DNA of 64,000 nucleotides from an uncultured virus (IMG/VR IMGVR_UViG_3300034012_002207) (lineage: Duplodnaviria; Heunggongvirae; Uroviricota; Caudoviricetes). This document shows, piece by piece, positions 2,212 to 56,444 of the stretch. The first letter of the stretch is position 1. Every line of letters starts with the position of its first letter. The DNA lies in the IMG/VR virus record IMGVR_UViG_3300034012_002207; one strand, given 5' to 3'. The notes beneath the pieces are model-generated. The model had not been told where the DNA came from. It ran no database searches and worked only from the letters and a program-made list of their open reading frames with translations. The translations under genes and the position numbers were made by a program.

Positions 2212-5200
2212 CTAAGGTGATATTGTTGTTAATGTAATATCAGTTAATGCGCTTACCAAACTTTCATTTCCTGCGGCATCGACCATTCTGCATGCAATTC
2301 TATATTTAATTCCTGAAGCACTAATTCTTGGACTTGCAAAATCCAGTAGATTTACATCAACATAGGTTGCAGAAGTATTTAGAGTTATTATACTAGCATC
2401 CGTAGTAGACCAAAAGTCTCCAGTTCCAGTATTTTTAAATATTTTAATTTTAAAGTATTTAAAATCATTTGGTAAAATTCCTACTACAGTAGTTACTCTA
2501 AGGACTTTGCCCAAGCGTTTTACTGATATACTAGAAACTAAAGCACGGTTTATTGTTAAACCAGCTACTTGATGAGTAGCCCAAGCGGTCCAAGGCCCTA
2601 CTATAGTATCACTAGTTAAATATCTTAATCTATATTTATAACTTTCTCCAGCTATTACATCGCTTATAGTAATAGTTCCAGAAGTAAATTCAGAATTAAT
2701 TACTTTAGTATTACTATTATCTATATCTGCAACTGTTGCGTATTTATATTCACACTGAACAAATTTTGTAGTTACCGGAATATCATCAACTGTTGCATAA
2801 GATATTTTTATATTATACTTATTAACTCCAGGAGATATTATATCTACTGCTCGTTCATCGCTATAAATTTGAGTTACTATAGGAGTTTGATTATTGGTAA
2901 AACTATTTATTAATCTTGCTGGAGGTAAGGTTATTTGAGTTTCAAATATAATACTAGAGGTTAAATTTTTGTAGTCTGTAAAAATATTATAAGAATCTGT
3001 AACTCCGTAGTCCATTAGGGTAAGTTTAGCAGTTTTATTTGTGCTAGGCTCTATACTAATTACAAGTAAATCTTGACTTTCTTTATTTAGTTCACCAAAC
3101 ATAAATAAATTATCGTAGTCTAGCAATGTTGAATTTCTTATGCCAGGCATTCCGGGGGTCTCAGTACTTATAGGATTTAACAAATGTACAAATCTATACA
3201 TTCCGGATTGTAGAGTTATGATTCCTATAGCATTAGTAACTGTTTCATCAATTCCTACATTTGGATAACTAATAGTATTATTTGTTCTATTAATGGTTAC
3301 AGGTATATTAGTAGCTGCAATGGCTGGATAGTTTTGAGAACTAATACTAATAATATTTGTTTCATCAAAAGGTATTGTTCCACCAGTTATAGTAGGGCTT
3401 AAGTTTATAGTTAATACATTATTTTGTCTGGTAAAACCTGTAAATACAAAAGTAGTTTTTACTTGAGATGTTGTACTTTGTCCTGTTTTTCCTCTAAATC
3501 TAATTGTATATATTTTGCCATTACTTATGGGTACGTTTTCTGTTAATTCTACAAGAGTATAACTAGTATTTGTAATATAAAAGTTTTTTACTCTGCCTGA
3601 AGCTAAGCCCCAAGCAGGCACATCATGAGTAACTTTTACTCTATCCCCTCTGTTACATACTAAGTATTCTAAATCTGCATTTAAACTATAAACTTCTCTG
3701 CGTAGTTTAGCTTGTGCAAAGTGCCATTTAGCATGATCTACTACTATGGCTTCATTGGTTATACCAGGTAATGTAATACTTTCAAAAAGTTCTGCATTTT
3801 GTTCGGTTTTGTCGCTATTATAAACAATTGTTTCTACTTGTTGATAATTTTGTTCTTCATCATAAAAACTTACTTTTAATCCATCTGGTTCTTTTGCCAG
3901 CCCACGTACACCTTCGAATCCCCAACTATTATGTGTAGTAAAATGTTGAACAATAGTAGTTTTAGGTTCATCTATTACAACTGTCCACTTACCGTCAATT
4001 AGTGCCGGACTAGCTCTGCCTGCTGCACAAATATCGCGTAAAACGTCTAGTATACTTCGCTGGTTACCTACTACAGCATTATATGTATACTTATAAGTTT
4101 TAGTTACTTGTGTTGAATTTGGTCTAGTATAAGTTATTGTTCGCGAAGTATTACAATAATTATACCAATATTGTAATTGTGGTATATTTATTTTTTCAGC
4201 AATTTCGGTATCTAGTATTCTTTGAGGATTTGCAGGGTGAGTTAATACATGAAAAAATAAACTAGCAGGATTATTGGTTACTTCGGTAAAGGTTGTACCT
4301 GGAGTTGAATTAATTGTTATATTGCCATTACCATCTAATGTACCAAGAGGTTTGCATCTACTAGATACTAGTGCATTTATACCTTCTAATTGATTGCTTA
4401 GCTGTCCTTCCGCTTTTATACTGTATGCACTTTTAGCTAAAGTGCAATCCTTGGGGAGTTTCATTGGAAATCTATTACTAGTATAAGTTGCGCTTAAAAA
4501 TACTACATCATGCATGTAACGATAATTTGGATCGTCATCAACATTATCTCCACTTATTCTACGTACTTGTACTTGAATTAATTGCGATGTAGAAAAAGTT
4601 TTGGTTCTAGTAATTGTATAAGCATCTTTTTTATCACCTGATATTGTAAATTTTTCCCAAGGAATCCATACATTACTGTTTGGATCGTGCTTATACTGTG
4701 TTTCTATATACACTGAATGGCTAGACGTAGTTCCATTAGTGGTTAAAATCTTTCTCATACCTTGTGGCATATGAAAAGCAAGGGTAAGTTCTGTAGCAGT
4801 TTGAGTAGAACTTGCAGAAACCCAAGGACCAGGTGTTCCAAATACTGTAGTAGTTGGGCTTAGTATAGGACGTTCATAGTCATTATAACTCCAAAAATTT
4901 CCAGTTTCTGTATCATAAAAGTCCTGTTGGTGATACCCTATAATTTCACCGCCAGTTACTGTAGGCTCTGCGGGGCCGTCACATACTAATAAAACATTTA
5001 CTGTATCTTGCTCAACATCTCTTGCATAAATACTATTAAATAAAGCTATTCCTGCAAAAGTATCATCATAACCATTTAAAGTGGCTCCTTGTTGTATAAT
5101 ATAATTATTAATATCAACATCGCCAATTTTTTGATTAGTAATTTGAAGTGGACCAAATCCCCACACTACTGCGGTGGTTAAATAAGAATTACGCTCTTCA

Positions 5201-14324: not shown

Positions 14325-15814
14325 GCTAGTACGGCCCTCATTTTGGTTATCATTTGTTCTTGCATGATTTCACGGATTGACTTAGAGATTAACAGTTTAG
14401 GGTCTCTGGATCTAGGAAACTCCTGTCTGCCGCCTTGACTAAAAGTAGCGTATGGATATCGCATATAATTATAATATGCAGTTATCATGCCTTCACGGCC
14501 TTGAGTAATCCGCTCAACTCTAGCACTTTCTGCAAACCTACCAGTTCTGTAGTTTAAAATATCGGTTCTGCTACCAGTTCCCATATTTTGACGAATTCTA
14601 GCAGTTAATTGTGATGCTAATATATTTTGAAGATCCGTTAGGGATCGCTGAGATACTAAATCTTCTAATATTAAATTTTCTTTTATCTTTTTAGTATCAG
14701 GTTTTGCTGCTTTTAATTTATTTTTTAAATTGGTCAAAGTCTGTATTTTTTGCTTATTAGACTTTGGTTTTGAAATCTTATTTGACTTTTTAGCAACTAA
14801 TACTGGTTGTTGCTTATATACTTTTTTACTAAGAGTTTTGCCAGCAATAGTATCTGCTATATCTTTTGCTATTAAGTCTATAAAACTTGGAGATCCTGGA
14901 GTATTTATTAATGTAATACCCAGAGCAGGAGATTTATTAATTATTGTAGCAAACTCTTGATTTGATAAATTAAATATATTTCTTAATTCATCAATAATAG
15001 GAATACTTGCTCGTCCTGACTGAATATTACCTACTCTATGTTGAAGCTCAACTAGGTATGTATTTGAAGATTTTATATATCCTGCATAAAGTTCTTGATC
15101 TACAGCATTTGGTAAATTTGCTGTAGCTAAGTCATCTTGAACTAATTTATCAATGTAACTATCAAGTACTTCTAATAGAGCATCTCTTTGTGCCTTTGTT
15201 TCAAAATCTACTTTTGCTAATTGATTTCTGAATTGTCGTACTAGATTGGTGGCTACACTAATTACGTGACCTTTATTAAAATAATATCCTAAAGTACCTC
15301 GTTCTTTTGCTTTATCAGCAATTTCTCTTTCTAGCTTTCTTTTTTCTGCTGTGGTACTTGATTTATATTTAGGATTATTTTTTAAGGCTTCTATTTCATT
15401 TTTATAGTATACTTGTTCAGCCTCATAGTATGCGTCTTGTATTTCAGGTATAGCATCTAATATATTAGTAATTTTTGTACTTATAGTGTCAAAACCAATA
15501 TTTTTAAAAAATACTGCTGTTTCACCATTTACATTAATTTGAGTTCCACTAATAGTATCTTTGCTTGTTGCAGTTACTTTTAACAAGTCTGATAAGAATA
15601 TTTGAGCTTCACTGTTATCTATGTCTATATTGGCTATTGTTTTATATAGCTGTTTTACAGTGCTAGTCGTAATATAAAAACTAGTTTTTTGACTAACCTG
15701 CTCTCGGTCTCTAAGAGCCTTTGAGGTGGCTGTTACAATATTTTTATCAAGATTAGATAACCAATTTTTATATACTTGACTTTGTAGTGCTGCTGTAAAA
15801 TTTGCTATACCCAT
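14321..15814 (-). CDS. tail completion/neck protein
   Basis: C-terminal LNYRTGRFAES...YMRYPYATF..G...RDP.LLIS.SIREI; synteny. Confidence 0.7.
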   Translation of the reverse strand: MGIANFTAALQSQVYKNWLSNLDKNIVTATSKALRDREQVSQKTSFYITTSTVKQLYKTIANIDIDNSEAQIFLSDLLKVTATSKDTISGTQINVNGETAVFFKNIGFDTISTKITNILDAIPEIQDAYYEAEQVYYKNEIEALKNNPKYKSSTTAEKRKLEREIADKAKERGTLGYYFNKGHVISVATNLVRQFRNQLAKVDFETKAQRDALLEVLDSYIDKLVQDDLATANLPNAVDQELYAGYIKSSNTYLVELQHRVGNIQSGRASIPIIDELRNIFNLSNQEFATIINKSPALGITLINTPGSPSFIDLIAKDIADTIAGKTLSKKVYKQQPVLVAKKSNKISKPKSNKQKIQTLTNLKNKLKAAKPDTKKIKENLILEDLVSQRSLTDLQNILASQLTARIRQNMGTGSRTDILNYRTGRFAESARVERITQGREGMITAYYNYMRYPYATFSQGGRQEFPRSRDPKLLISKSIREIMQEQMITKMRAVLA

Positions 15815-22183: not shown

Positions 22184-22368
22184 GGTGATCCTGTAGTTTT
22201 TTAAAGTGTAACACGTTTAGCGGTTTAGGGTCAATGGGTAAATTTTCCTTGGTGTTACACGCGTGGGTGGGCGCTCAGATTTTTTGGTTTGTCAAGTCAA
22301 AAAACCGCCCCTGTTACGTTATAACATCACAAGGCCTGGCGCTGTTACAAATTGTTACAATTCAATGC

Positions 22369-24089: not shown

Positions 24090-24431
24090 ATGAACTCAAA
24101 CCCGCTCTTAAAACCTTGGCAAGATGCTTGCCGGATTTGGCCGGAACTGGAATTGCACAACCCGCCAACCTTCAAAATCTCGGAACGGCTAACCCGTACC
24201 GCTGGCTTGTGCATTGTGGAGACTGGCGAGATTACCCTCAGCGGCCCATACTTGCGCGAATACCGGCGTGAAATGATGGGGCAAATTCTCACCCATGAGA
24301 CTGCACATTATATCGACTACTGCCTGAACGGATGGCGAAAATATAAGCGGCATCACGGCAAACCATGGCAGGAAATCATGTATACTCTAGGGTATGAACC
24401 GAAACCCTTTCACACAATGGAATTAAAATAA
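24090..24431 (+). CDS. SprT-like zinc metalloprotease
   Basis: RLTRTAG, LTHETAH, HGKPW. Confidence 0.85.
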   Translation: MNSNPLLKPWQDACRIWPELELHNPPTFKISERLTRTAGLCIVETGEITLSGPYLREYRREMMGQILTHETAHYIDYCLNGWRKYKRHHGKPWQEIMYTLGYEPKPFHTMELK

Positions 24432-24904
24432 TGGCAATCAAGCGCGTTAGAATTTACGACATGGACGGAACCATTGTATGCTCGCTGCATCGTTACCGGA
24501 CCGTCATCGATGAGCGTGGCGAGCGTATCGACCTAGACTACTGGCGCGAGAATGAATACCGCGCGCTTGACGATTCACTCTTACCGCTGGTCGAAGAATA
24601 CTGGCAAGACCTTGACGATCCTGAAACGTATACCATAATTGCGACTGCGCGCGTACTAGGCGAACCGGATCGAGAATTTATCCGCGACACTCTAGGCGAA
24701 CCCGATTATATCGTTTCGCGTAAACAGGGCGATACGCAATCAGGTCGAACCCTCAAAATCGGTGGACTAGCAAAGTTTTTCAACCTTGTCAACTTCCAGA
24801 CTGACGATGTTGTTTTTTATGAGGATAATGTGGACTACCTTAAAGCAGTCTGCGACCGTTTCGGTATCCGTGGAGTTTACATTCCAAGCAAGCAGGGACA
24901 CTAA
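24431..24904 (+). CDS. HAD-family phosphatase
   Basis: IYDMDGT, IATAR, K, FYEDN motifs. Confidence 0.8.
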   Translation: MAIKRVRIYDMDGTIVCSLHRYRTVIDERGERIDLDYWRENEYRALDDSLLPLVEEYWQDLDDPETYTIIATARVLGEPDREFIRDTLGEPDYIVSRKQGDTQSGRTLKIGGLAKFFNLVNFQTDDVVFYEDNVDYLKAVCDRFGIRGVYIPSKQGH

Positions 24905-26890: not shown

Positions 26891-27217
26891 ATGGCAGAAA
26901 AAGCCGTGAACTACACTCCCGAGCAAACCGCGCAGGTTGTCGCGGATTATCTCGCGGGTGTTACCGTGGAAAGCATTGCCGAAAATCTCGGCAAATCGGT
27001 TCGTTCGATTGTGGCAAAATTGTCGCGCGAGGGTGTTTACCAGAAAAAGGTTTATACCACGAAAACCGGCGAACCCGTTCAGAAAAAGGATATGACTGCG
27101 GATGCTATCGGTCGAATTCTGAACCTGAGCGAAGCTGATACCGACTCGCTTACCAAAGCGAACAAGCGCGCGCTGAAGGCGATTTTTGATGCGCTTGCCA
27201 ATTCCAAGCCTATCTAA
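26891..27217 (+). CDS. T5 A2-like DNA-binding protein (copy 2)
   Basis: close paralog of 22780-23100. Confidence 0.75.
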   Translation: MAEKAVNYTPEQTAQVVADYLAGVTVESIAENLGKSVRSIVAKLSREGVYQKKVYTTKTGEPVQKKDMTADAIGRILNLSEADTDSLTKANKRALKAIFDALANSKPI

Positions 27218-27690: not shown

Positions 27691-27887
27691 AATCTAGTCT
27701 TGCCCGCGACCGCTAAGCCATGTATAATATTTATATTGAGTCAGCGATTAAAGGAACAACATGAACAAATTTGTGCCACCGGATACCGTAGGCGATTTAC
27801 CTGACTGGTTGAAGCCTAAAAAATCTTGACTTGATTCCCAAGCCTAATCCCTGTATAATATTTATATTGATTGATTGGAGAACCCAA

Positions 27888-28196
27888 ATGACTGACAAAG
27901 TAATGAACTATACCCCTGAACAAGTTCAGGAACTGGTCCAGAAGTATCAGCAAGGTGTAAGTGTTGAGCAACTGGCTGAGCAGGTTGGTAAAAGTGTGCG
28001 TAGTGTGGTTGCTAAACTTTCGCGCGAGGGTGTGTACGTAGCGAAGACCCGGACTACACAGGCGGCCCGGGTTACCAAAGCTGAGCTGGTCGAGCGCATT
28101 GCTAAGGTGTGTGATCGGAATAGTGAACAGTTTGAATCGCTGGAAAAAGCAAATCAGGATGTTTTGACCCGCCTGGTCGAAGTGCTCAAAGCCTGA
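27888..28196 (+). CDS. T5 A2-like DNA-binding protein (copy 3)
   Basis: NYTPEQ...GKSVRSVVAKLSREGVY; GGAG RBS. Confidence 0.75.
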   Translation: MTDKVMNYTPEQVQELVQKYQQGVSVEQLAEQVGKSVRSVVAKLSREGVYVAKTRTTQAARVTKAELVERIAKVCDRNSEQFESLEKANQDVLTRLVEVLKA

Positions 28197-28258
28197 TCAA
28201 CCGGGGGCTGCAAAAATTTACTCTTGCAGCCCCCACTCAAACAGTGTATAATATTATT

Positions 28259-28636
28259 ATAGTTTGGGAAGGGCGATAACGCGCACAAACAGAGTCCACT
28301 TAGCCAACTACAAGTGTCGATAACCTAAGTACGAGACTCAAGTTTGATTCCCAAACTATCCCTTCAGAAAGGCAGCAGTTAGTTACTGCTAGCAGATGGT
28401 AATATTGGTCTGTAGTTTTATGATGTCTGGCTCTGATCGGTCCCTAATGTCTCAGTACCTGGAAGCAGTAAATTCTGGGGAACGCACTCACGGAAATCAA
28501 CCAGACCCTAAACCGCGGCAATCTCAACCATCGTTGCTGCTTTTCCCCCTATTCCTCTGATGAGCTCACCAAGAGCGAAACCCAAACCCGAAAACTGGTG
28601 CCCCATGCCCAGCAGACTACGGTTTAGGGTCAGGAA
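28259..28636 (+). ncRNA. putative structured ncRNA ending in hammerhead ribozyme
   Basis: promoter at about 28224-28252, long closing stems, no credible ORF, terminator at 28639-28670. Confidence 0.65.
28552..28636 (+). ncRNA. type I hammerhead ribozyme
   Basis: ttcct-CTGATGA-gctc/gagc-GAAA-ccc.aaacc/ggttt.ggg-TC-aggaa; GUC cleavage after 28631. Confidence 0.88.
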
Positions 28637-28638
28637 CC

Positions 28639-28670
28639 GAGCCCACCAGTGCAAACTGGTGGGCTTTTTT
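28639..28670 (+). terminator. intrinsic terminator
   Basis: agcccaccagt-gcaa-actggtgggct followed by T-run. Confidence 0.9.
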
Positions 28671-28836
28671 ATTTGCGGTAGGGCGCCAATATTATACAGT
28701 GCTAAAGCTATATGTGTCAAGAGCAGATTTGTTGGGGTTCTGACCCTAAGCCGCGGCAAGTCGGTACAAGTTGTGCTCACAAAACAAAAACCCCCAAGGC
28801 TTCCACAGCTTTGGGGGTTTTTTCACTTTATACGGT

Positions 28837-29148
28837 TTAGGGTCGGTTATTCCTACTTAATTCCCGTTCTATGACCTCAAGCACACCTTTATTGACCTTT
28901 TCCAGACTTTCGAGCAGTTCAAGGTTCATGTTGAGCAGTAGGGCGATTCGTTCGATGTATTCTGACTTCTTAACCGGGACCTCACCGCGTTTGTTTAGGT
29001 ACTGTTTTTTCTGGTACACCTCGAGGGAGCTGAGCTTGGCAATTATGCTACGAGTTGGCACCTGGAGCTCTTGGGCAAGCTCCTCTACTGGGACACCTTC
29101 TCGGTATCTTTGCACTAGACGGTCAGTGATTTCTTTAGTATATTTCAT
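28837..29148 (-). CDS. T5 A2-like DNA-binding protein (copy 4, convergent)
   Basis: MKYT.E....LV..Y..G..VEELA..L...RSIIAKLS...VYQKK; LESLEKVNK. Confidence 0.7.
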   Translation of the reverse strand: MKYTKEITDRLVQRYREGVPVEELAQELQVPTRSIIAKLSSLEVYQKKQYLNKRGEVPVKKSEYIERIALLLNMNLELLESLEKVNKGVLEVIERELSRNNRP

Positions 29149-29152
29149 GTTG

Positions 29153-29935
29153 TTAGTCGTCCCATGGCATATCTGCGACTTTAACGTGTTTTGGACCCTC
29201 AGTCGCCACAACCGAAAAAATCTCGTCGGGTAGGAGCGGCGGTGGCATACGATCCCACTGCCAGGGGTCTAGGATTAAGTATTGTGTTCGTAGCTGTGGA
29301 TGGCAAACCCAGATTTGTGTCAACATTGTAATCGCCAGACGAGGAATCTCACGCCATGGAGTGGGTAGTCCAGTAAGCTGCCAAGTTGTAAGCGCACTTT
29401 TATACTGACCTTGTTTTTGTCCAGTTTTGTACAGCAACCCCTGCTGGCGAATTTCGATGAGCTCTTGTGACCCTAAATCGCGGAAGTGTGGGTTATGGCT
29501 AGCCCACAGCAAACATTCGTAAAGTTCTTTACTAATCACACGATCCAAGCCTTCCAGCGGCCAGCTCTGGTATGGAACTCCCCGATCTCGACGTTGTGCT
29601 AGTAGGATAGTAGGAGCTAGACTACTCCAGTTGACAGAGCTGGGATGGCTTTGACGTTTGATCAGGTGGCTGCGATTTACTCGATTAACTAGCCTCCACA
29701 AGCCCAGCTCCCAATCGCTGCAAATGTTGATACGGAGTGTTTTAGGAATGTCTACCCTACCTTGAGGGTCTAGGATAAGATTCCAGCGATTGTAGTGTGC
29801 TAGAATCTGAGGCCACAACCACTCCTCTTTGGTCTGGAGTTGTTGTTCGGCCACCCAAACCTCCAGCAGTTTAGGGTCGACCTGGTTGGCAATTTCATGG
29901 AGTGGAATTGCTTCCAGTTTATTTAGTTTTTGCAT
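29153..29935 (-). CDS. hypothetical protein (Trp-rich)
   Basis: 260-aa ORF, operonic with the A2-like gene. Confidence 0.75.
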   Translation of the reverse strand: MQKLNKLEAIPLHEIANQVDPKLLEVWVAEQQLQTKEEWLWPQILAHYNRWNLILDPQGRVDIPKTLRINICSDWELGLWRLVNRVNRSHLIKRQSHPSSVNWSSLAPTILLAQRRDRGVPYQSWPLEGLDRVISKELYECLLWASHNPHFRDLGSQELIEIRQQGLLYKTGQKQGQYKSALTTWQLTGLPTPWREIPRLAITMLTQIWVCHPQLRTQYLILDPWQWDRMPPPLLPDEIFSVVATEGPKHVKVADMPWDD

Positions 29936-47880: not shown

Positions 47881-48064
47881 ATACTATGGCTTGGGTATGG
47901 ATTATACTATTTTCTGTGTTAGGCACTGGCGGCGAGCACGGAACTAGAGGTGCATACTCTAGCAGAGCTGAGTGCGAACAAGCACTAGCCAAACTTAAAC
48001 TAGACTACGAAACTAAAGGTAAAACCCTAGTTGGTAGTTGTAGTGTTACGCAAAAGAAGATATA

Positions 48065-48372
48065 GTTGTATGAAGTTAACCCAAAGGTGCTTTGGACGCG
48101 GGTTCGACTCCCGCCTGGTCCACCAGAAACATTTTTGTCCATGTATTTGGGAACGGAAAGATAAACCGTGAGAATGTTTCTGATGGGCTAGTCATGGTTT
48201 CGACAGGGTGCAGAGTAGGAAGATGGACAACTCGGCAATGCAGAAGCCGTAGGGCTGGGACTACCCGGCTAGAGAAGCAAACAAACTAAACGCAAACGAT
48301 GAAACGTTCGCATTAGCCGCCTAAACTCGGCTTAGGGTTCCAGGTTATCCTCGTAACAGAAAACCTGGACTT
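48065..48372 (+). ncRNA. ssrA: circularly permuted (two-piece) tmRNA
   Basis: T-arm and CTGGTCC-ACCA (ends 48125) precede 5' strand GGGCTAG (48185); G3-U70; tag ANDETFALAA* at 48292-48324; outer ends approximate. Confidence 0.9.
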
Positions 48373-48426
48373 AAATGGCCATTTGGCATTTTTATTAACA
48401 ATTCTTGCTCAACCGAGGAGAATGAG

Positions 48427-52528: not shown

Positions 52529-52894
52529 ATGACTCAATGGACTCCTGAACTTAAAGAACAAGTTGTTAAAATGTATCAAGATGCTGATCCTACCCCTGAG
52601 AGCAGCACTGAGATTATCAAAGACATTGCTGACGAGATCGAAGCCTCACCTAACGGTGTTCGCATGGTTCTTGTTCAAGCGGGTGTCTATGTTAAGAAAG
52701 AAGCCTCCGCCAGCACTAGCAAGGGCGGCAGTACCGCCAAAACCGGCGAAGGCACTAAGCGTGTAAGCAAAGAAGCAGCTATTGCTGAGCTTACCAAAGC
52801 TATCGAAGCCAAGGGTGCTCCTATCGACGAGGATATTCTTGGCAAACTGACTGGTAAAGCTGCTGTTTACCTGTTGAGTGTTATCAAGGCTTAA
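52529..52894 (+). CDS. T5 D3-like DNA-binding protein
   Basis: WT.E, S.EI...IA....SPNG.RM.L..AG.Y.KK, KLTGKAA. Confidence 0.75.
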   Translation: MTQWTPELKEQVVKMYQDADPTPESSTEIIKDIADEIEASPNGVRMVLVQAGVYVKKEASASTSKGGSTAKTGEGTKRVSKEAAIAELTKAIEAKGAPIDEDILGKLTGKAAVYLLSVIKA

Positions 52895-53899: not shown

Positions 53900-54856
53900 A
53901 TGACAAACAAACTCAAAGAATTTCTTGACACAGCAAGCAAGCACTATTACGACGGCTGGCCTATTATTAGTGATAAGCAGTTTGATAGTCTTGCTGAGTT
54001 GATTGGCTACGGCGAGGTAGGTAGTGCTCCGCAGACCAATAAGGCTAAACACTTTAGGCAAATGTATAGTCTGCAGAAATTCTATGATGATGAGGGTCAG
54101 CGTAATCCACTAGAAGGCGTTCGGGAAGTTAGTGTTACTCCCAAACTTGATGGCGCAGCCATCTCACTGCTTTACATCAACGGCGAGTTAGTTCAAGCAC
54201 TTACTCGGGGCGATGGAGTAGAGGGTCAACTGATTACTGACAAGCTGTTGTCAACTAACCTAGTACCGCATAAAATTTCCTATACGCCTATTCTCCAAAT
54301 TACCGGAGAAATTGTTGCTCCAAGCCATATTGAAAATAGCCGAAACTATGCCGCTGGCTCCCTTAATCTAAAGGATCTAGATGAATTTAGAACGCGAGCC
54401 ATTAGTTTCTTTGCCTATGGCTTATTCCCGCACTGGTCAGACTCATATTCGCAAGATATGAAATGGCTGCGTAAGCAGGGTTTTCAAACTGTCTTGGAAG
54501 CAGACTTAGATAAAATTTATCCTTGTGATGGTGTAGTATTTCGTTGTGACTCAAACCAAGAGTTTGAAGCCTTGGGCTATACTAGCAAGCATCCCCGTGG
54601 TGCATACGCTAGAAAAGAACGAGCTGAACACGTAGAAACTACACTCTTAGGCGTAGAATGGCAAGTAGGTAAAACTGGCAAGGTTACCCCTGTGGCTATT
54701 CTAGAACCTGTTATGATTGGCGATGCACAAGTGAGCCGAGCTACCCTAAACAATCCAGGCTTTATCGAAGCACTGGGCCTTGAAATTGGCGACAGGGTAG
54801 CTGTAATCAGGGCTGGAGAAATCATTCCCTGTGTGCTGCACAAAGTAGATGCCTAA
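53900..54856 (+). CDS. ligA: NAD-dependent DNA ligase, catalytic subunit A
   Basis: YY.G.PIISD..FD, KLDG, ALTRGDG, DGVV, WQVG.TG.VTP, RATL.N, RAGEIIP. Confidence 0.93.
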   Translation: MTNKLKEFLDTASKHYYDGWPIISDKQFDSLAELIGYGEVGSAPQTNKAKHFRQMYSLQKFYDDEGQRNPLEGVREVSVTPKLDGAAISLLYINGELVQALTRGDGVEGQLITDKLLSTNLVPHKISYTPILQITGEIVAPSHIENSRNYAAGSLNLKDLDEFRTRAISFFAYGLFPHWSDSYSQDMKWLRKQGFQTVLEADLDKIYPCDGVVFRCDSNQEFEALGYTSKHPRGAYARKERAEHVETTLLGVEWQVGKTGKVTPVAILEPVMIGDAQVSRATLNNPGFIEALGLEIGDRVAVIRAGEIIPCVLHKVDA

Positions 54857-54943: not shown

Positions 54944-55705
54944 ATGAAAATCACGATTCCCACAAATTGTCCGTGTTGTGAATACCCACTTGAGTGGGTT
55001 AATGACCAGCTGTTTTGCCGGAATCAGGCTTGTAGTGCTCAGCTTGATAAAAAGTTAGAACACTTCTGCAAAACCCTTGGTATCAAGGGCATGGGTTCTA
55101 AGACTATAGAAAAACTAGAACTGGCAGATATTACTGAACTCTACTACCTAGAGGAAAGTGAGATTGCTGAGTGCTTGGGCAGTGAGCGTATGGCTGAGAA
55201 ACTGATTGATGAAATCAATCGCAGCCGTAGTGCAAGTCTAGCCGAAGTCCTAGCAAGTTTTAGTATTCCCTTAATTGGTAACACCGCATCACAGAAAGTT
55301 TCTAAAGTAATCAGTCATATTGACGAACTTACCACAGAAAAATGCCGTGAAGCTGGTTTAGGGGAAAAAGCCACCGAAAATCTTATGAATTGGATTCAAA
55401 CAGATTTTCAAGAAATGAGAGAATTTCTGCCGTTCTCATTTCACTCTAACCATGTAGTAGATGCCCTAGAAGATAGAAAAACTATTTGTATTACTGGTAA
55501 ACTAAAAAGTTTCAAAACAAAACAAGAAGCATACGATCAACTTGAACAGCTTGGATTTAAAATTTCCGAAACTGTAACCAAATCCCTAGACTTTCTAGTT
55601 GACGAATCTGACAAATCTAGTTCTAAGCGTAAACGTGCCGAAGAACTAAATATTAAAATTATCACAGACCTACAACAATTTTTGAAAGAAAATAAAGATG
55701 ACTGA
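54944..55705 (+). CDS. NAD-dependent DNA ligase subunit B (Zn finger-HhH-BRCT)
   Basis: PTNCPCC, C.N..C, IKG.G, CITG, SSK..RA. Confidence 0.9.
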   Translation: MKITIPTNCPCCEYPLEWVNDQLFCRNQACSAQLDKKLEHFCKTLGIKGMGSKTIEKLELADITELYYLEESEIAECLGSERMAEKLIDEINRSRSASLAEVLASFSIPLIGNTASQKVSKVISHIDELTTEKCREAGLGEKATENLMNWIQTDFQEMREFLPFSFHSNHVVDALEDRKTICITGKLKSFKTKQEAYDQLEQLGFKISETVTKSLDFLVDESDKSSSKRKRAEELNIKIITDLQQFLKENKDD

Positions 55706-56444
55706 AAAAGCTAAAAAATGGAATGACGAGGTTGTTGACCAACTGCTTCAAATCGTTGGTAGCCAAAGCCCCGTTAGCGTAGCTAAAGTTGAAGAAGCCG
55801 CCGAAACCCTTGGATTCACTACTCGTAGTATTGCTGCTAAACTCCGCCAGCTAGACCGTGATGTTGCTAGCATGGCCAAAGAAAAGACCACTGCCTTCAC
55901 CGAAGACGAGACTGATGATCTTGCCAACTTTGTTGAGGATAATGTTGGTCGTTATACCTACAAAGAAATTGCAGAAAACTTTGCTGATGGCAAGTTTACT
56001 GCTAAACAGATTCAGGGTAAACTTCTTGCCCTAGAACTTACCGGCGCTGTAAAGCCTGCCGAGAAAGTTGAAGTTGCTCGTACTTACACAGAAGCTGAAG
56101 AAGCAAAATTTGTTCAAATGGCTGAGCGCGGTGCCTTTATCGAGGATATTGCTGCTGCCCTTAACAAGACTGTTGCAAGTGTACGTGGCAAGGCTCTTAG
56201 CCTTACTCGTAAAGGTCAAATTGCTAAGATTCCCGCACAGCGCGAGTCCCATGCTAAAGATCAGGTTGATCCTATCGTTGCTCTTGGTAGTCGTATTGCT
56301 ACTATGACTGTAGCAGAGATTGCCAAAGAAGTTGATAAGACTGAGCGTGGTCTTCGTACCCTTCTTACCCGCCGCGGAATTAATGTTGCCGATTACAAAG
56401 GCGCAGACAAGAAAGCCAAGGCCGAGGCTAAAGCTGCTGCCTAA
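55698..56444 (+). CDS. T5 D5-like DNA-binding protein
   Basis: repeated HTH units (RSIAAKLR, SVRGKALSL, RGLRTLLTRRG); synteny. Confidence 0.8.
   Translation: MTEKAKKWNDEVVDQLLQIVGSQSPVSVAKVEEAAETLGFTTRSIAAKLRQLDRDVASMAKEKTTAFTEDETDDLANFVEDNVGRYTYKEIAENFADGKFTAKQIQGKLLALELTGAVKPAEKVEVARTYTEAEEAKFVQMAERGAFIEDIAAALNKTVASVRGKALSLTRKGQIAKIPAQRESHAKDQVDPIVALGSRIATMTVAEIAKEVDKTERGLRTLLTRRGINVADYKGADKKAKAEAKAAA

Follow-up and report, generated by a model that had tools for sequence, protein, structure and literature searches.

Hammerhead ribozymes are already well known in phages. Those found in phages and prophages have been proposed to cut up long phage transcripts (Perreault et al. 2011, PMC3088659), and the same paper raises the idea that phage hammerheads might be regulated. 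The locus described here has an intergenic phage setting in common with them, and the transcript-cutting role that we favor agrees with the proposal made there. However, the text of PMC3088659 describes prophage and integrase contexts and hammerheads that flank genes, whereas ours lies in a non-coding hub of lytic-type, T5-like phages, at one copy per genome. The conserved words of our family had no match in 11 supplement files of PMC3088659 (a string search, and a weak one, as gaps may break alignments), and a full-text literature search outside subscription journals returned no description of this family.

Two further systems offer useful parallels. In the antigenomic ribozyme of hepatitis delta virus (HDV), competing pairings with the poly(A)-site sequence upstream of it set the cleaved fraction (Brown et al. 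2008, PMC2396440); that ribozyme is of another class, belongs to a eukaryotic virus, and had its competition demonstrated by mutation and native gels, whereas ours is predicted. The discontinuous mouse hammerhead has a very large inserted loop, discussed as a possible control handle in PMC3088659, and the window family resembles it in carrying an unusually long insertion in one helix.

Within Rfam, the closest relatives are the type I hammerheads (clan CL00010: Hammerhead_1, HH9, HH10), which share with our locus the 11-nt core, the G10.1–C11.1 and A15.1–U16.1 pairs and C17, as well as an open stem I and closed stems II and III. Unlike them, the phage family scores far below all gathering thresholds, has a structured insert of 47–75 nt in stem III, and has a stem I of 3–5 bp.

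Parts and fold of the hammerhead

The window (the whole stretch of 64,000 nucleotides analyzed here) is part of a genome consisting of a single 97.8-kb virus record. An initial annotation, made from the letters alone, had placed a complete hammerhead core with three stems at 28552–28636, a strong terminator just past 28631, and a perfect complement of 28620–28631 at 28504–28515. On reading the sequence, we found every element of the ribozyme in its place; the terminator (a 12-bp hairpin at 28639–28666 followed by a T-run) and the complementarity were equally confirmed. The ribozyme comprises the following parts:

28552..28636, + strand: type I hammerhead ribozyme (sequence, fold and covariance model)
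28552–28556 TTCCT / 28632–28636 AGGAA, + strand: stem I (sequence)
28557–28563, + strand: core CTGATGA (CUGAUGA) (sequence)
28564–28567 GCTC / 28573–28576 GAGC, + strand: stem II, with loop ACCAA (sequence)
28577–28579, + strand: GAA (sequence)
28580–28588 / 28621–28630, + strand: stem III (A28580–T28630, CCC/GGG, bulged A28626, AAACC/GGTTT)
28595–28598 / 28609–28612, + strand: inner helix within stem III (4 bp, fold)

All core positions, the G10.1–C11.1 and A15.1–U16.1 pairs, and C17 could be read on the + strand of 28552–28636. C17 corresponds to 28631, so that the predicted cut falls between C28631 and A28632. The 5′ and 3′ ends exit via stem I, and stems II and III are capped, which is the type I topology. 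Stem III encloses 32 nt, within which a further 4-bp helix is predicted; the mouse hammerhead differs in that its insertion lies between an enzyme part and a substrate part within a 3′ UTR. When the 85-mer was folded in isolation, its minimum free energy (MFE) structure was the hammerhead fold (−22.9 kcal/mol, in silico).

Fast natural hammerheads rely on a tertiary contact between stem I and loop II and cleave at physiological Mg2+. Loop II has 5 nt in the window as opposed to 7 nt in most relatives, and no consistent pairing between loop II and the stem I flank was apparent in the window or its relatives, as judged by eye on alignments with such short stems I.

The motif might be a chance look-alike, devoid of ribozyme function in the window and everywhere else. 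Using a stem-aware descriptor (the core plus minimum lengths of 4, 3 and 4 bp for stems I, II and III, with G–U permitted), we obtained one match in the window against a mean of 0.05 in 100 dinucleotide shuffles, four of which scored at least one. A looser regular expression was uninformative (1 observed, 0.98 expected). In a scan of many windows, the hammerhead motif by itself is therefore only suggestive.

Rfam scores, too, could be read in favor of a chance match. The Infernal search recommended by the initial annotation returned none of the Rfam hammerhead families (RF00163, RF00008, RF02275-7) at its gathering threshold in the window; under permissive settings (501 bases), HH9 was the only hammerhead match, with 17.2 bits against a gathering score of 52 (E 0.19), its weak alignment spanning the core and the first pairs of each stem. 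In the related loci described below, the best Rfam scores were for Hammerhead_3: 31.9 in L053, 29.9 in L021 and 17.0 in L044, against a gathering score of 48.5. These weak matches take as substrate a GUC in the loop of an upstream hairpin, which would make the ribozyme type III. In a 26-sequence alignment that GUC is not conserved, being replaced by GCG, GAC or CGC, and we rejected the type III alternative.

A ribozyme family in related loci

What decides against a chance match is the comparison with related loci. As a synteny anchor we used the gene for a GcrA-like helix–turn–helix (HTH) protein at 27888–28196, and we analyzed 80 loci out of more than 700 related candidates. At the corresponding position, the descriptor picked up a hammerhead in 8 near-identical and 15 divergent loci, and none was seen off-site. 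RNAalifold, applied to 15 sequences, recovered all three stems, and from these 15 a covariance model (R1) was built. R1 scored the window at 63.8 bits (E 1.2e-13) and gave exactly one match per locus in 56 of the 80 loci as well as in the window, always on the strand of the HTH gene and 597–1279 nt past the gene start. There was no further match at E ≤ 1 in 509,746 bases, and the whole 97.8-kb genome holds one ribozyme copy by R1.

The remaining 24 loci had no R1 match. Five of them extend less than 600 nt past the gene start and one 849 nt, but 18 span at least 2,900 nt, and in these the ribozyme appears to be absent, implying that it is not universal beside this HTH gene family.

Among 42 distinct sequences, 96.1% of the cells pair, compared with 22–45% when the partners are slid by 1–3 columns, and 8 of 13 pairs show compensatory (both-side) changes; the alignment (A2) was fitted to the model, so these pair counts are biased towards the structure. 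The hammerhead consensus lets only N7 and H17 (not G) vary. In the same 42 sequences the core was invariant except for precisely these positions, N7 being U or C and H17 being C, or A in L033 and L061. Wherever the letters were available, G10.1–C11.1 was GC (40/40 distinct sequences) and A15.1–U16.1 was AU (40/40). The outermost pair of stem I was open in 19 of 40. Stem III contains U–G pairs (14 and 3 cells), which on the opposite strand would be A–C mismatches; this fits the + strand only, meaning that the + strand is the RNA. Even within the close clade, both strands of the inner stem III helix have changed in L008 (CUGG/CCAG to CUAG/CUAG).

The two strands around the cleavage site also drift together. 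The substrate strand has become CCUGGAGGUC in L053/54 and CCUGAGGGUC in L063, and the enzyme strand has changed alongside it, to ACUUCCAGG and ACCCUCGGG, respectively.

Given the syntenic conservation, the invariant core and the compensatory changes in all three stems, 28552–28636 is, on comparative grounds, a real hammerhead of type I topology in a conserved family, as the initial annotation had recognized. The window copy is very probably functional, to judge from the same comparison, and a chance look-alike is extremely unlikely.

Some loci depart from the common form. In L049 (3828–3946) and in L061 and L062 (3737–3861) the ribozyme is a variant with an enlarged stem II, which contains a copy of the 12-mer motif discussed below; such variants score low with R1 (24.6 and 17.9 bits). 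L106 and L119 are one IMG/VR contig of 100,412 nt with the ribozyme pattern at both ends (379–776 and 99811–100205), so that the locus lies there in a terminal repeat or an assembly overlap.

The phage and its non-coding locus

The genome has several traits of T5-like siphophages: a split NAD-dependent ligase, a D5-like regulator, a tRNA cluster, a tape-measure protein and a fused protease/capsid gene. The capsid/protease, about 39% identical to that of T5-like Vibrio phages, was the sole link to these phages, and no cultured phage matched 27500–29500 by blastn or the HTH protein by tblastn. The ligase is encoded by two adjacent ORFs (53900–54853 and 54944–55702), as it is in phage T5; the D5-like regulator lies at 55698–56441 and a further HTH relative at 52529–52891. 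The tRNA cluster (36.8–50.9 kb) comprises 18 tRNA genes according to ARAGORN and 19 tRNA matches according to Rfam, and includes a permuted (two-piece) tmRNA gene at 48005–48415 with the tag peptide ANDETFALAA. A 157-aa protein with a DMDGT motif (24431–24904, + strand; PHROG 'polynucleotide kinase', E 8e-8) is presumably a HAD-type phosphatase that stands alone, like those that heal the 3′ ends of RNA. Near 16 kb, within the block of structural genes, the G+C content goes up from about 0.35 to about 0.45; it drops again past about 58 kb.

The ribozyme sits in an ORF-poor hub between convergent gene sets, in which the following features could be recognized:

27888..28196, + strand: GcrA-like HTH gene (Pfam GcrA E 7e-7; PHROG 323/1725)
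26891–27217, + strand, and 28837–29148, − strand: GcrA-like HTH paralogues, which together with 27888–28196 flank the non-coding hub
28224..28252, + strand: candidate promoter P1, TTGCAG-17-TATAAT (by eye)
28419–28424, + strand: candidate −10 box TATGAT (by eye)
28515..28540, + strand: 8-bp hairpin directly 5′ of stem I (fold)
28639..28672, + strand: intrinsic terminator T1 (12-bp hairpin 28639–28666, GCAA loop, then a T-run)
28691..28720, − strand: consensus sigma-70 promoter TTGACA-18-TATAAT (12/12 matches), antisense, facing T1 and the ribozyme

Two ORFs that overlap the ribozyme were rejected as genes: the 54-aa ORF at 28396–28560, whose end falls in the core, is shortened to 21 aa in L001 and to 24 aa in L008, and the 90-aa minus-strand ORF at 28508–28780 is broken in L008.

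T1 has 12 pairs, 7 of them GC, and the tail TTTTATTTGC, hence the GC-rich hairpin and U-run of an intrinsic terminator; its hairpin starts seven bases beyond C17. In L008 the T1 stem has another sequence with 12 bp still paired (by eye). Upstream of the ribozyme, the relatives have a hairpin of 7 pairs, 6 of which show compensatory changes (columns 158–164/181–187), and by position and by eye the window hairpin at 28515–28540 is its counterpart. Of the 56 loci with a ribozyme, 38 have the exact antisense promoter downstream of it, as does the window.

The geometry downstream of the ribozyme differs between the window clade and the rest of the family. The antisense promoter follows the ribozyme at 53 nt in the window clade (L005: 125 nt) and at 157–771 nt elsewhere, and the terminator region of most relatives comes only hundreds of bases after the ribozyme. 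In L044, where the antisense promoter is at 4462–4491 (− strand), about 590 nt of conserved sequence separate ribozyme and terminator, and the only ORF of at least 50 aa in that interval encodes 63 aa. A search of L044 3300–4650 against Rfam gave only terminator-like noise at E ≤ 5. Promoter-like sites scoring 10/12 are found in L044 at offsets like those of the window.

Viewed as a whole, the conserved non-coding region measures about 1.3 kb (L044 3306–4630, with equivalents in L009, L012, L013, L020, L021, L031, L035, L050 and L059) and contains two promoter-like sites, the covarying hairpin before the ribozyme and conserved blocks after it. It may be a large structured phage RNA. The window clade is without the ~600-nt 3′ part of this region. 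In three loci a tRNA-Glu(UUC) abuts the ribozyme (L018, 2449–2523; L022, 4206–4280; L066, 3896–3971), and in L070 the same tRNA (3612–3686) ends 77 nt before it.

Sixteen runs recorded as RNA carry small shares of a 1.5-kb stretch, and contigs 90–99% alike from four RNA runs (X1, X6, X8, X9) cover parts of 27834–28627. One of them, from X6 (730 nt, depth 4.7), joins the HTH gene and the ribozyme core and ends at 28627, 4 nt before the cut site, although as one strandless contig from one study, with DNA carry-over possible, it carries no verdict on transcription, strand, ends or cleavage. The others stop at 28229–28451, and RNA-run contig coverage at 28628–29300 was nil.

Hammerhead cleavage yields 2′,3′-cyclic phosphate and 5′-OH ends. 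Given the chemistry of the class, the RNA transcribed from this locus, which has candidate promoters downstream of the GcrA-like HTH gene, would fold into a three-helix junction and cut itself after C28631. The upstream product would carry the long stem III hairpin and a 2′,3′-cyclic phosphate at its end, and a 37–41-nt piece carrying T1, with a 5′-OH, would be released. In most relatives the ribozyme would instead divide a ~1-kb non-coding transcript, and in three loci it would act directly after a tRNA-Glu. Since the ribozyme is distant from the terminator in most relatives and follows tRNA-Glu in three, its general job would be transcript processing and not terminator removal; the family role is best read as the cutting of a non-coding or tRNA-bearing transcript.

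The initial annotation had inferred a switchable self-cleavage that removes the terminator and leaves a 2′,3′-cyclic phosphate on the upstream RNA. A cut after C28631 would indeed detach the T1 hairpin, but the adjacency of ribozyme and terminator is specific to the window clade, which appears to have lost the 3′ domain, so that a cut there would remove only the terminator hairpin. Terminator removal is a matter of the geometry of this clade, not the function of the family.

The upstream 12-mer: predicted competing helix and dispersed motif

The complementarity upstream of the ribozyme involves copies of one 12-mer, and a second inverted pair lies further downstream:

28504..28515, + strand: upstream 12-mer copy GACCCTAAACCG, the 'anti-ribozyme' of the initial annotation, exact complement of 28620–28631
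28620..28631, − strand: inverted 12-mer copy, which on the + strand provides the 3′ strand of stem III, U16.1 and C17
28742–28753, + strand, and 28833–28844, − strand: second inverted 12-mer pair, flanking a bidirectional terminator at 28796–28821

Because 28504–28515 is the exact reverse complement of 28620–28631, the helix that the two could form covers the cleavage site. When folding was started at 28500, this 12-bp helix was part of the MFE structure, with −43.2 kcal/mol versus −32.8 kcal/mol for the enforced ribozyme fold (in silico). The mean pair probability of the helix was 0.92 for 5′ ends at 28429–28500 and fell to 0.03–0.14 for a 5′ end at 28260. With that start, RNA further upstream is predicted to pre-pair the 12-mer: during synthesis of the ribozyme, the 12-mer was predicted to be 0.74–0.80 free in transcripts starting around 28431 (that is, mostly free) versus 0.30 free (mostly pre-paired) in those starting around 28260.

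The helix was not the only upstream influence. Even without the 12-mer, 12 added upstream bases already cut the stem III probability to about 0.12. With 60–180 nt of upstream context, that probability was 0.00–0.28 for the window and L008, compared with 0.47–0.98 for 8 divergent relatives. The ribozyme fold of the window clade is thus disfavored in silico once 12–60 nt of upstream sequence are included, suggesting that the window copy could be poorly active, with the proviso that tertiary structure and kinetics lie outside the folding energies. On these models, a competitor helix is physically plausible and clade-specific, and it probably lowers the cleaved fraction in the window clade to an extent that depends on the 5′ end of the transcript.

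The initial annotation had gone further and described a built-in switch. According to this explanation, the 12-mer was placed there to hold the ribozyme off, and its release (by the choice of 5′ end, an antisense RNA or a protein) would allow the terminator to be cut off and the fate of the upstream RNA to be altered. The energies given above, the dependence on the transcript start and the precedent of the HDV antigenomic ribozyme, modulated by competing upstream structures (PMC2396440), are all in keeping with it. Moreover, the upstream 12-mer is retained at −46/−47 in 8/8 close relatives, with a complementarity to the cleavage site of 10–15 bp (12 bp in the window, 15 in L001, 10 in L005, 11 in L008). 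However, these 8 relatives are too alike for retention to prove selection, and within the close clade the CCG at the 3′ end of the 12-mer is replaced by CTA or CCA, a change for which the ribozyme does not compensate.

A complement of at least 7 nt to the cleavage region was found within 260 nt upstream in 0 of 11 divergent ribozyme loci; in L051 a lone upstream 7-mer pairs with a different part of the tail. An energetically competitive alternative fold, as expected of a regulated ribozyme, is predicted in the window clade only, and an alternative pairing that is conserved or covaries with the ribozyme was not seen in these 11 loci. No trigger was found, the in silico results hinting only that the 5′ end matters, and the energy model is blind to hammerhead tertiary structure and to folding kinetics. 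Of the built-in switch, then, the competitive helix stands as a prediction, and the conservation of its upstream arm does not: the switch is unproven, clade-specific at best, and on balance unlikely as a purpose-built device.

A different account of the same folding data would be that the family is real but that the copy of the window clade is a relic that lost the 3′ domain and, with the 12-bp helix locking it, no longer cleaves to any use. Its stem III probability of about 0 in upstream context would agree with this, as would the short spacing to the antisense promoter and the loop II of 5 nt. On the other hand, the core is intact in 8/8 members of the clade, the stem III change of L008 is compensatory, and the isolated 85-mer folds correctly; we consider a relic very unlikely.

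The origin of the upstream 12-mer became clearer when its copies were counted, since it proved to be a generic dispersed motif. Allowing one mismatch at most, the window contains 14 copies versus 0.12 expected (at 14393, 21188, 22221, 28504, 28620, 28742, 28833, 29469, 29867, 45022, 45220, 45909, 49823 and 53857), and three additional copies outside the window bring the 97.8-kb genome to 17. Six of them fall within 28.5–29.9 kb. Of the 13 copies beyond the 28.5–28.9-kb hub, 12 point the same way as the local ORFs, four sit 32–69 nt before an ORF start, and those at 22221, 45909 and 53857 overlap sigma-70-like promoters (promoters by eye). All five divergent full-length relatives have 5–11 copies each, compared with 0–1 for a reversed control, and there, too, the copies cluster in the same non-coding hub. 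Across 260 unique contexts, cTGACCCTAAACYG-yaGCAA emerges as the extended motif of about 20 nt.

In most relatives the ribozyme substrate strand is itself an inverted copy of this motif, and 16 unique motif contexts lie within ribozymes of the related loci. We considered whether the 3′ tail of the ribozyme might act as an antisense seed for the dispersed motif, and rejected the idea: L054 has the drifted substrate strand and yet 5 canonical motif copies in its record, so that the motif copies do not track the ribozyme. The fact that the ribozyme strands drift together while the genome retains the canonical motif implies that the ribozyme is selected for pairing and the motif for something else. 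The role of the motif is probably that of a regulatory site in DNA or of a signal in RNA.

The explanation that we prefer, and regard as probable, is that a genuine type I hammerhead family occupies one syntenic site in a large clade of uncultured T5-like phages of about 100 kb, and that the upstream helix is a by-product of motif placement and not a conserved switch. The upstream 12-mer would be a copy of a dispersed, orientation-biased phage motif with a function of its own, and the 12-bp helix is possible because the substrate strand carries that motif in inverted form.

A more elaborate reading, which we deem quite improbable, gives the same 12–17 nt three roles, as dispersed phage signal, as cleavage site and as arm of the ribozyme-blocking helix, so that cutting of the RNA would depend on the occupant of the upstream copy. 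This occupant may be upstream RNA confined to transcripts from the distal promoter, the antisense RNA of the conserved perfect promoter or a motif-binding protein (e.g., one of the neighboring HTH paralogues), and the extra inverted motif copies in the ~1-kb RNA of the relatives could act as long-range substrates or competitors. If the three roles were real, this would be a natural hammerhead that reports the state of a phage regulatory circuit.

Under our preferred explanation, the locus adds to the known phage hammerheads a family defined by a covariance model and about 40 distinct sequences, which lies below every curated Rfam threshold and belongs to uncultured T5-like freshwater phages. 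With one clade predicted to have a strong competitor helix and others without, it offers a natural pair of ribozyme states for studying control by flanking sequence. It also marks an unannotated non-coding hub of 0.4–1.3 kb, with covarying hairpins, a conserved antisense promoter and sometimes a tRNA-Glu, and it brings to light a dispersed ~20-nt motif in these phages, for which an operator, a promoter element and an RNA signal are all candidate identities.
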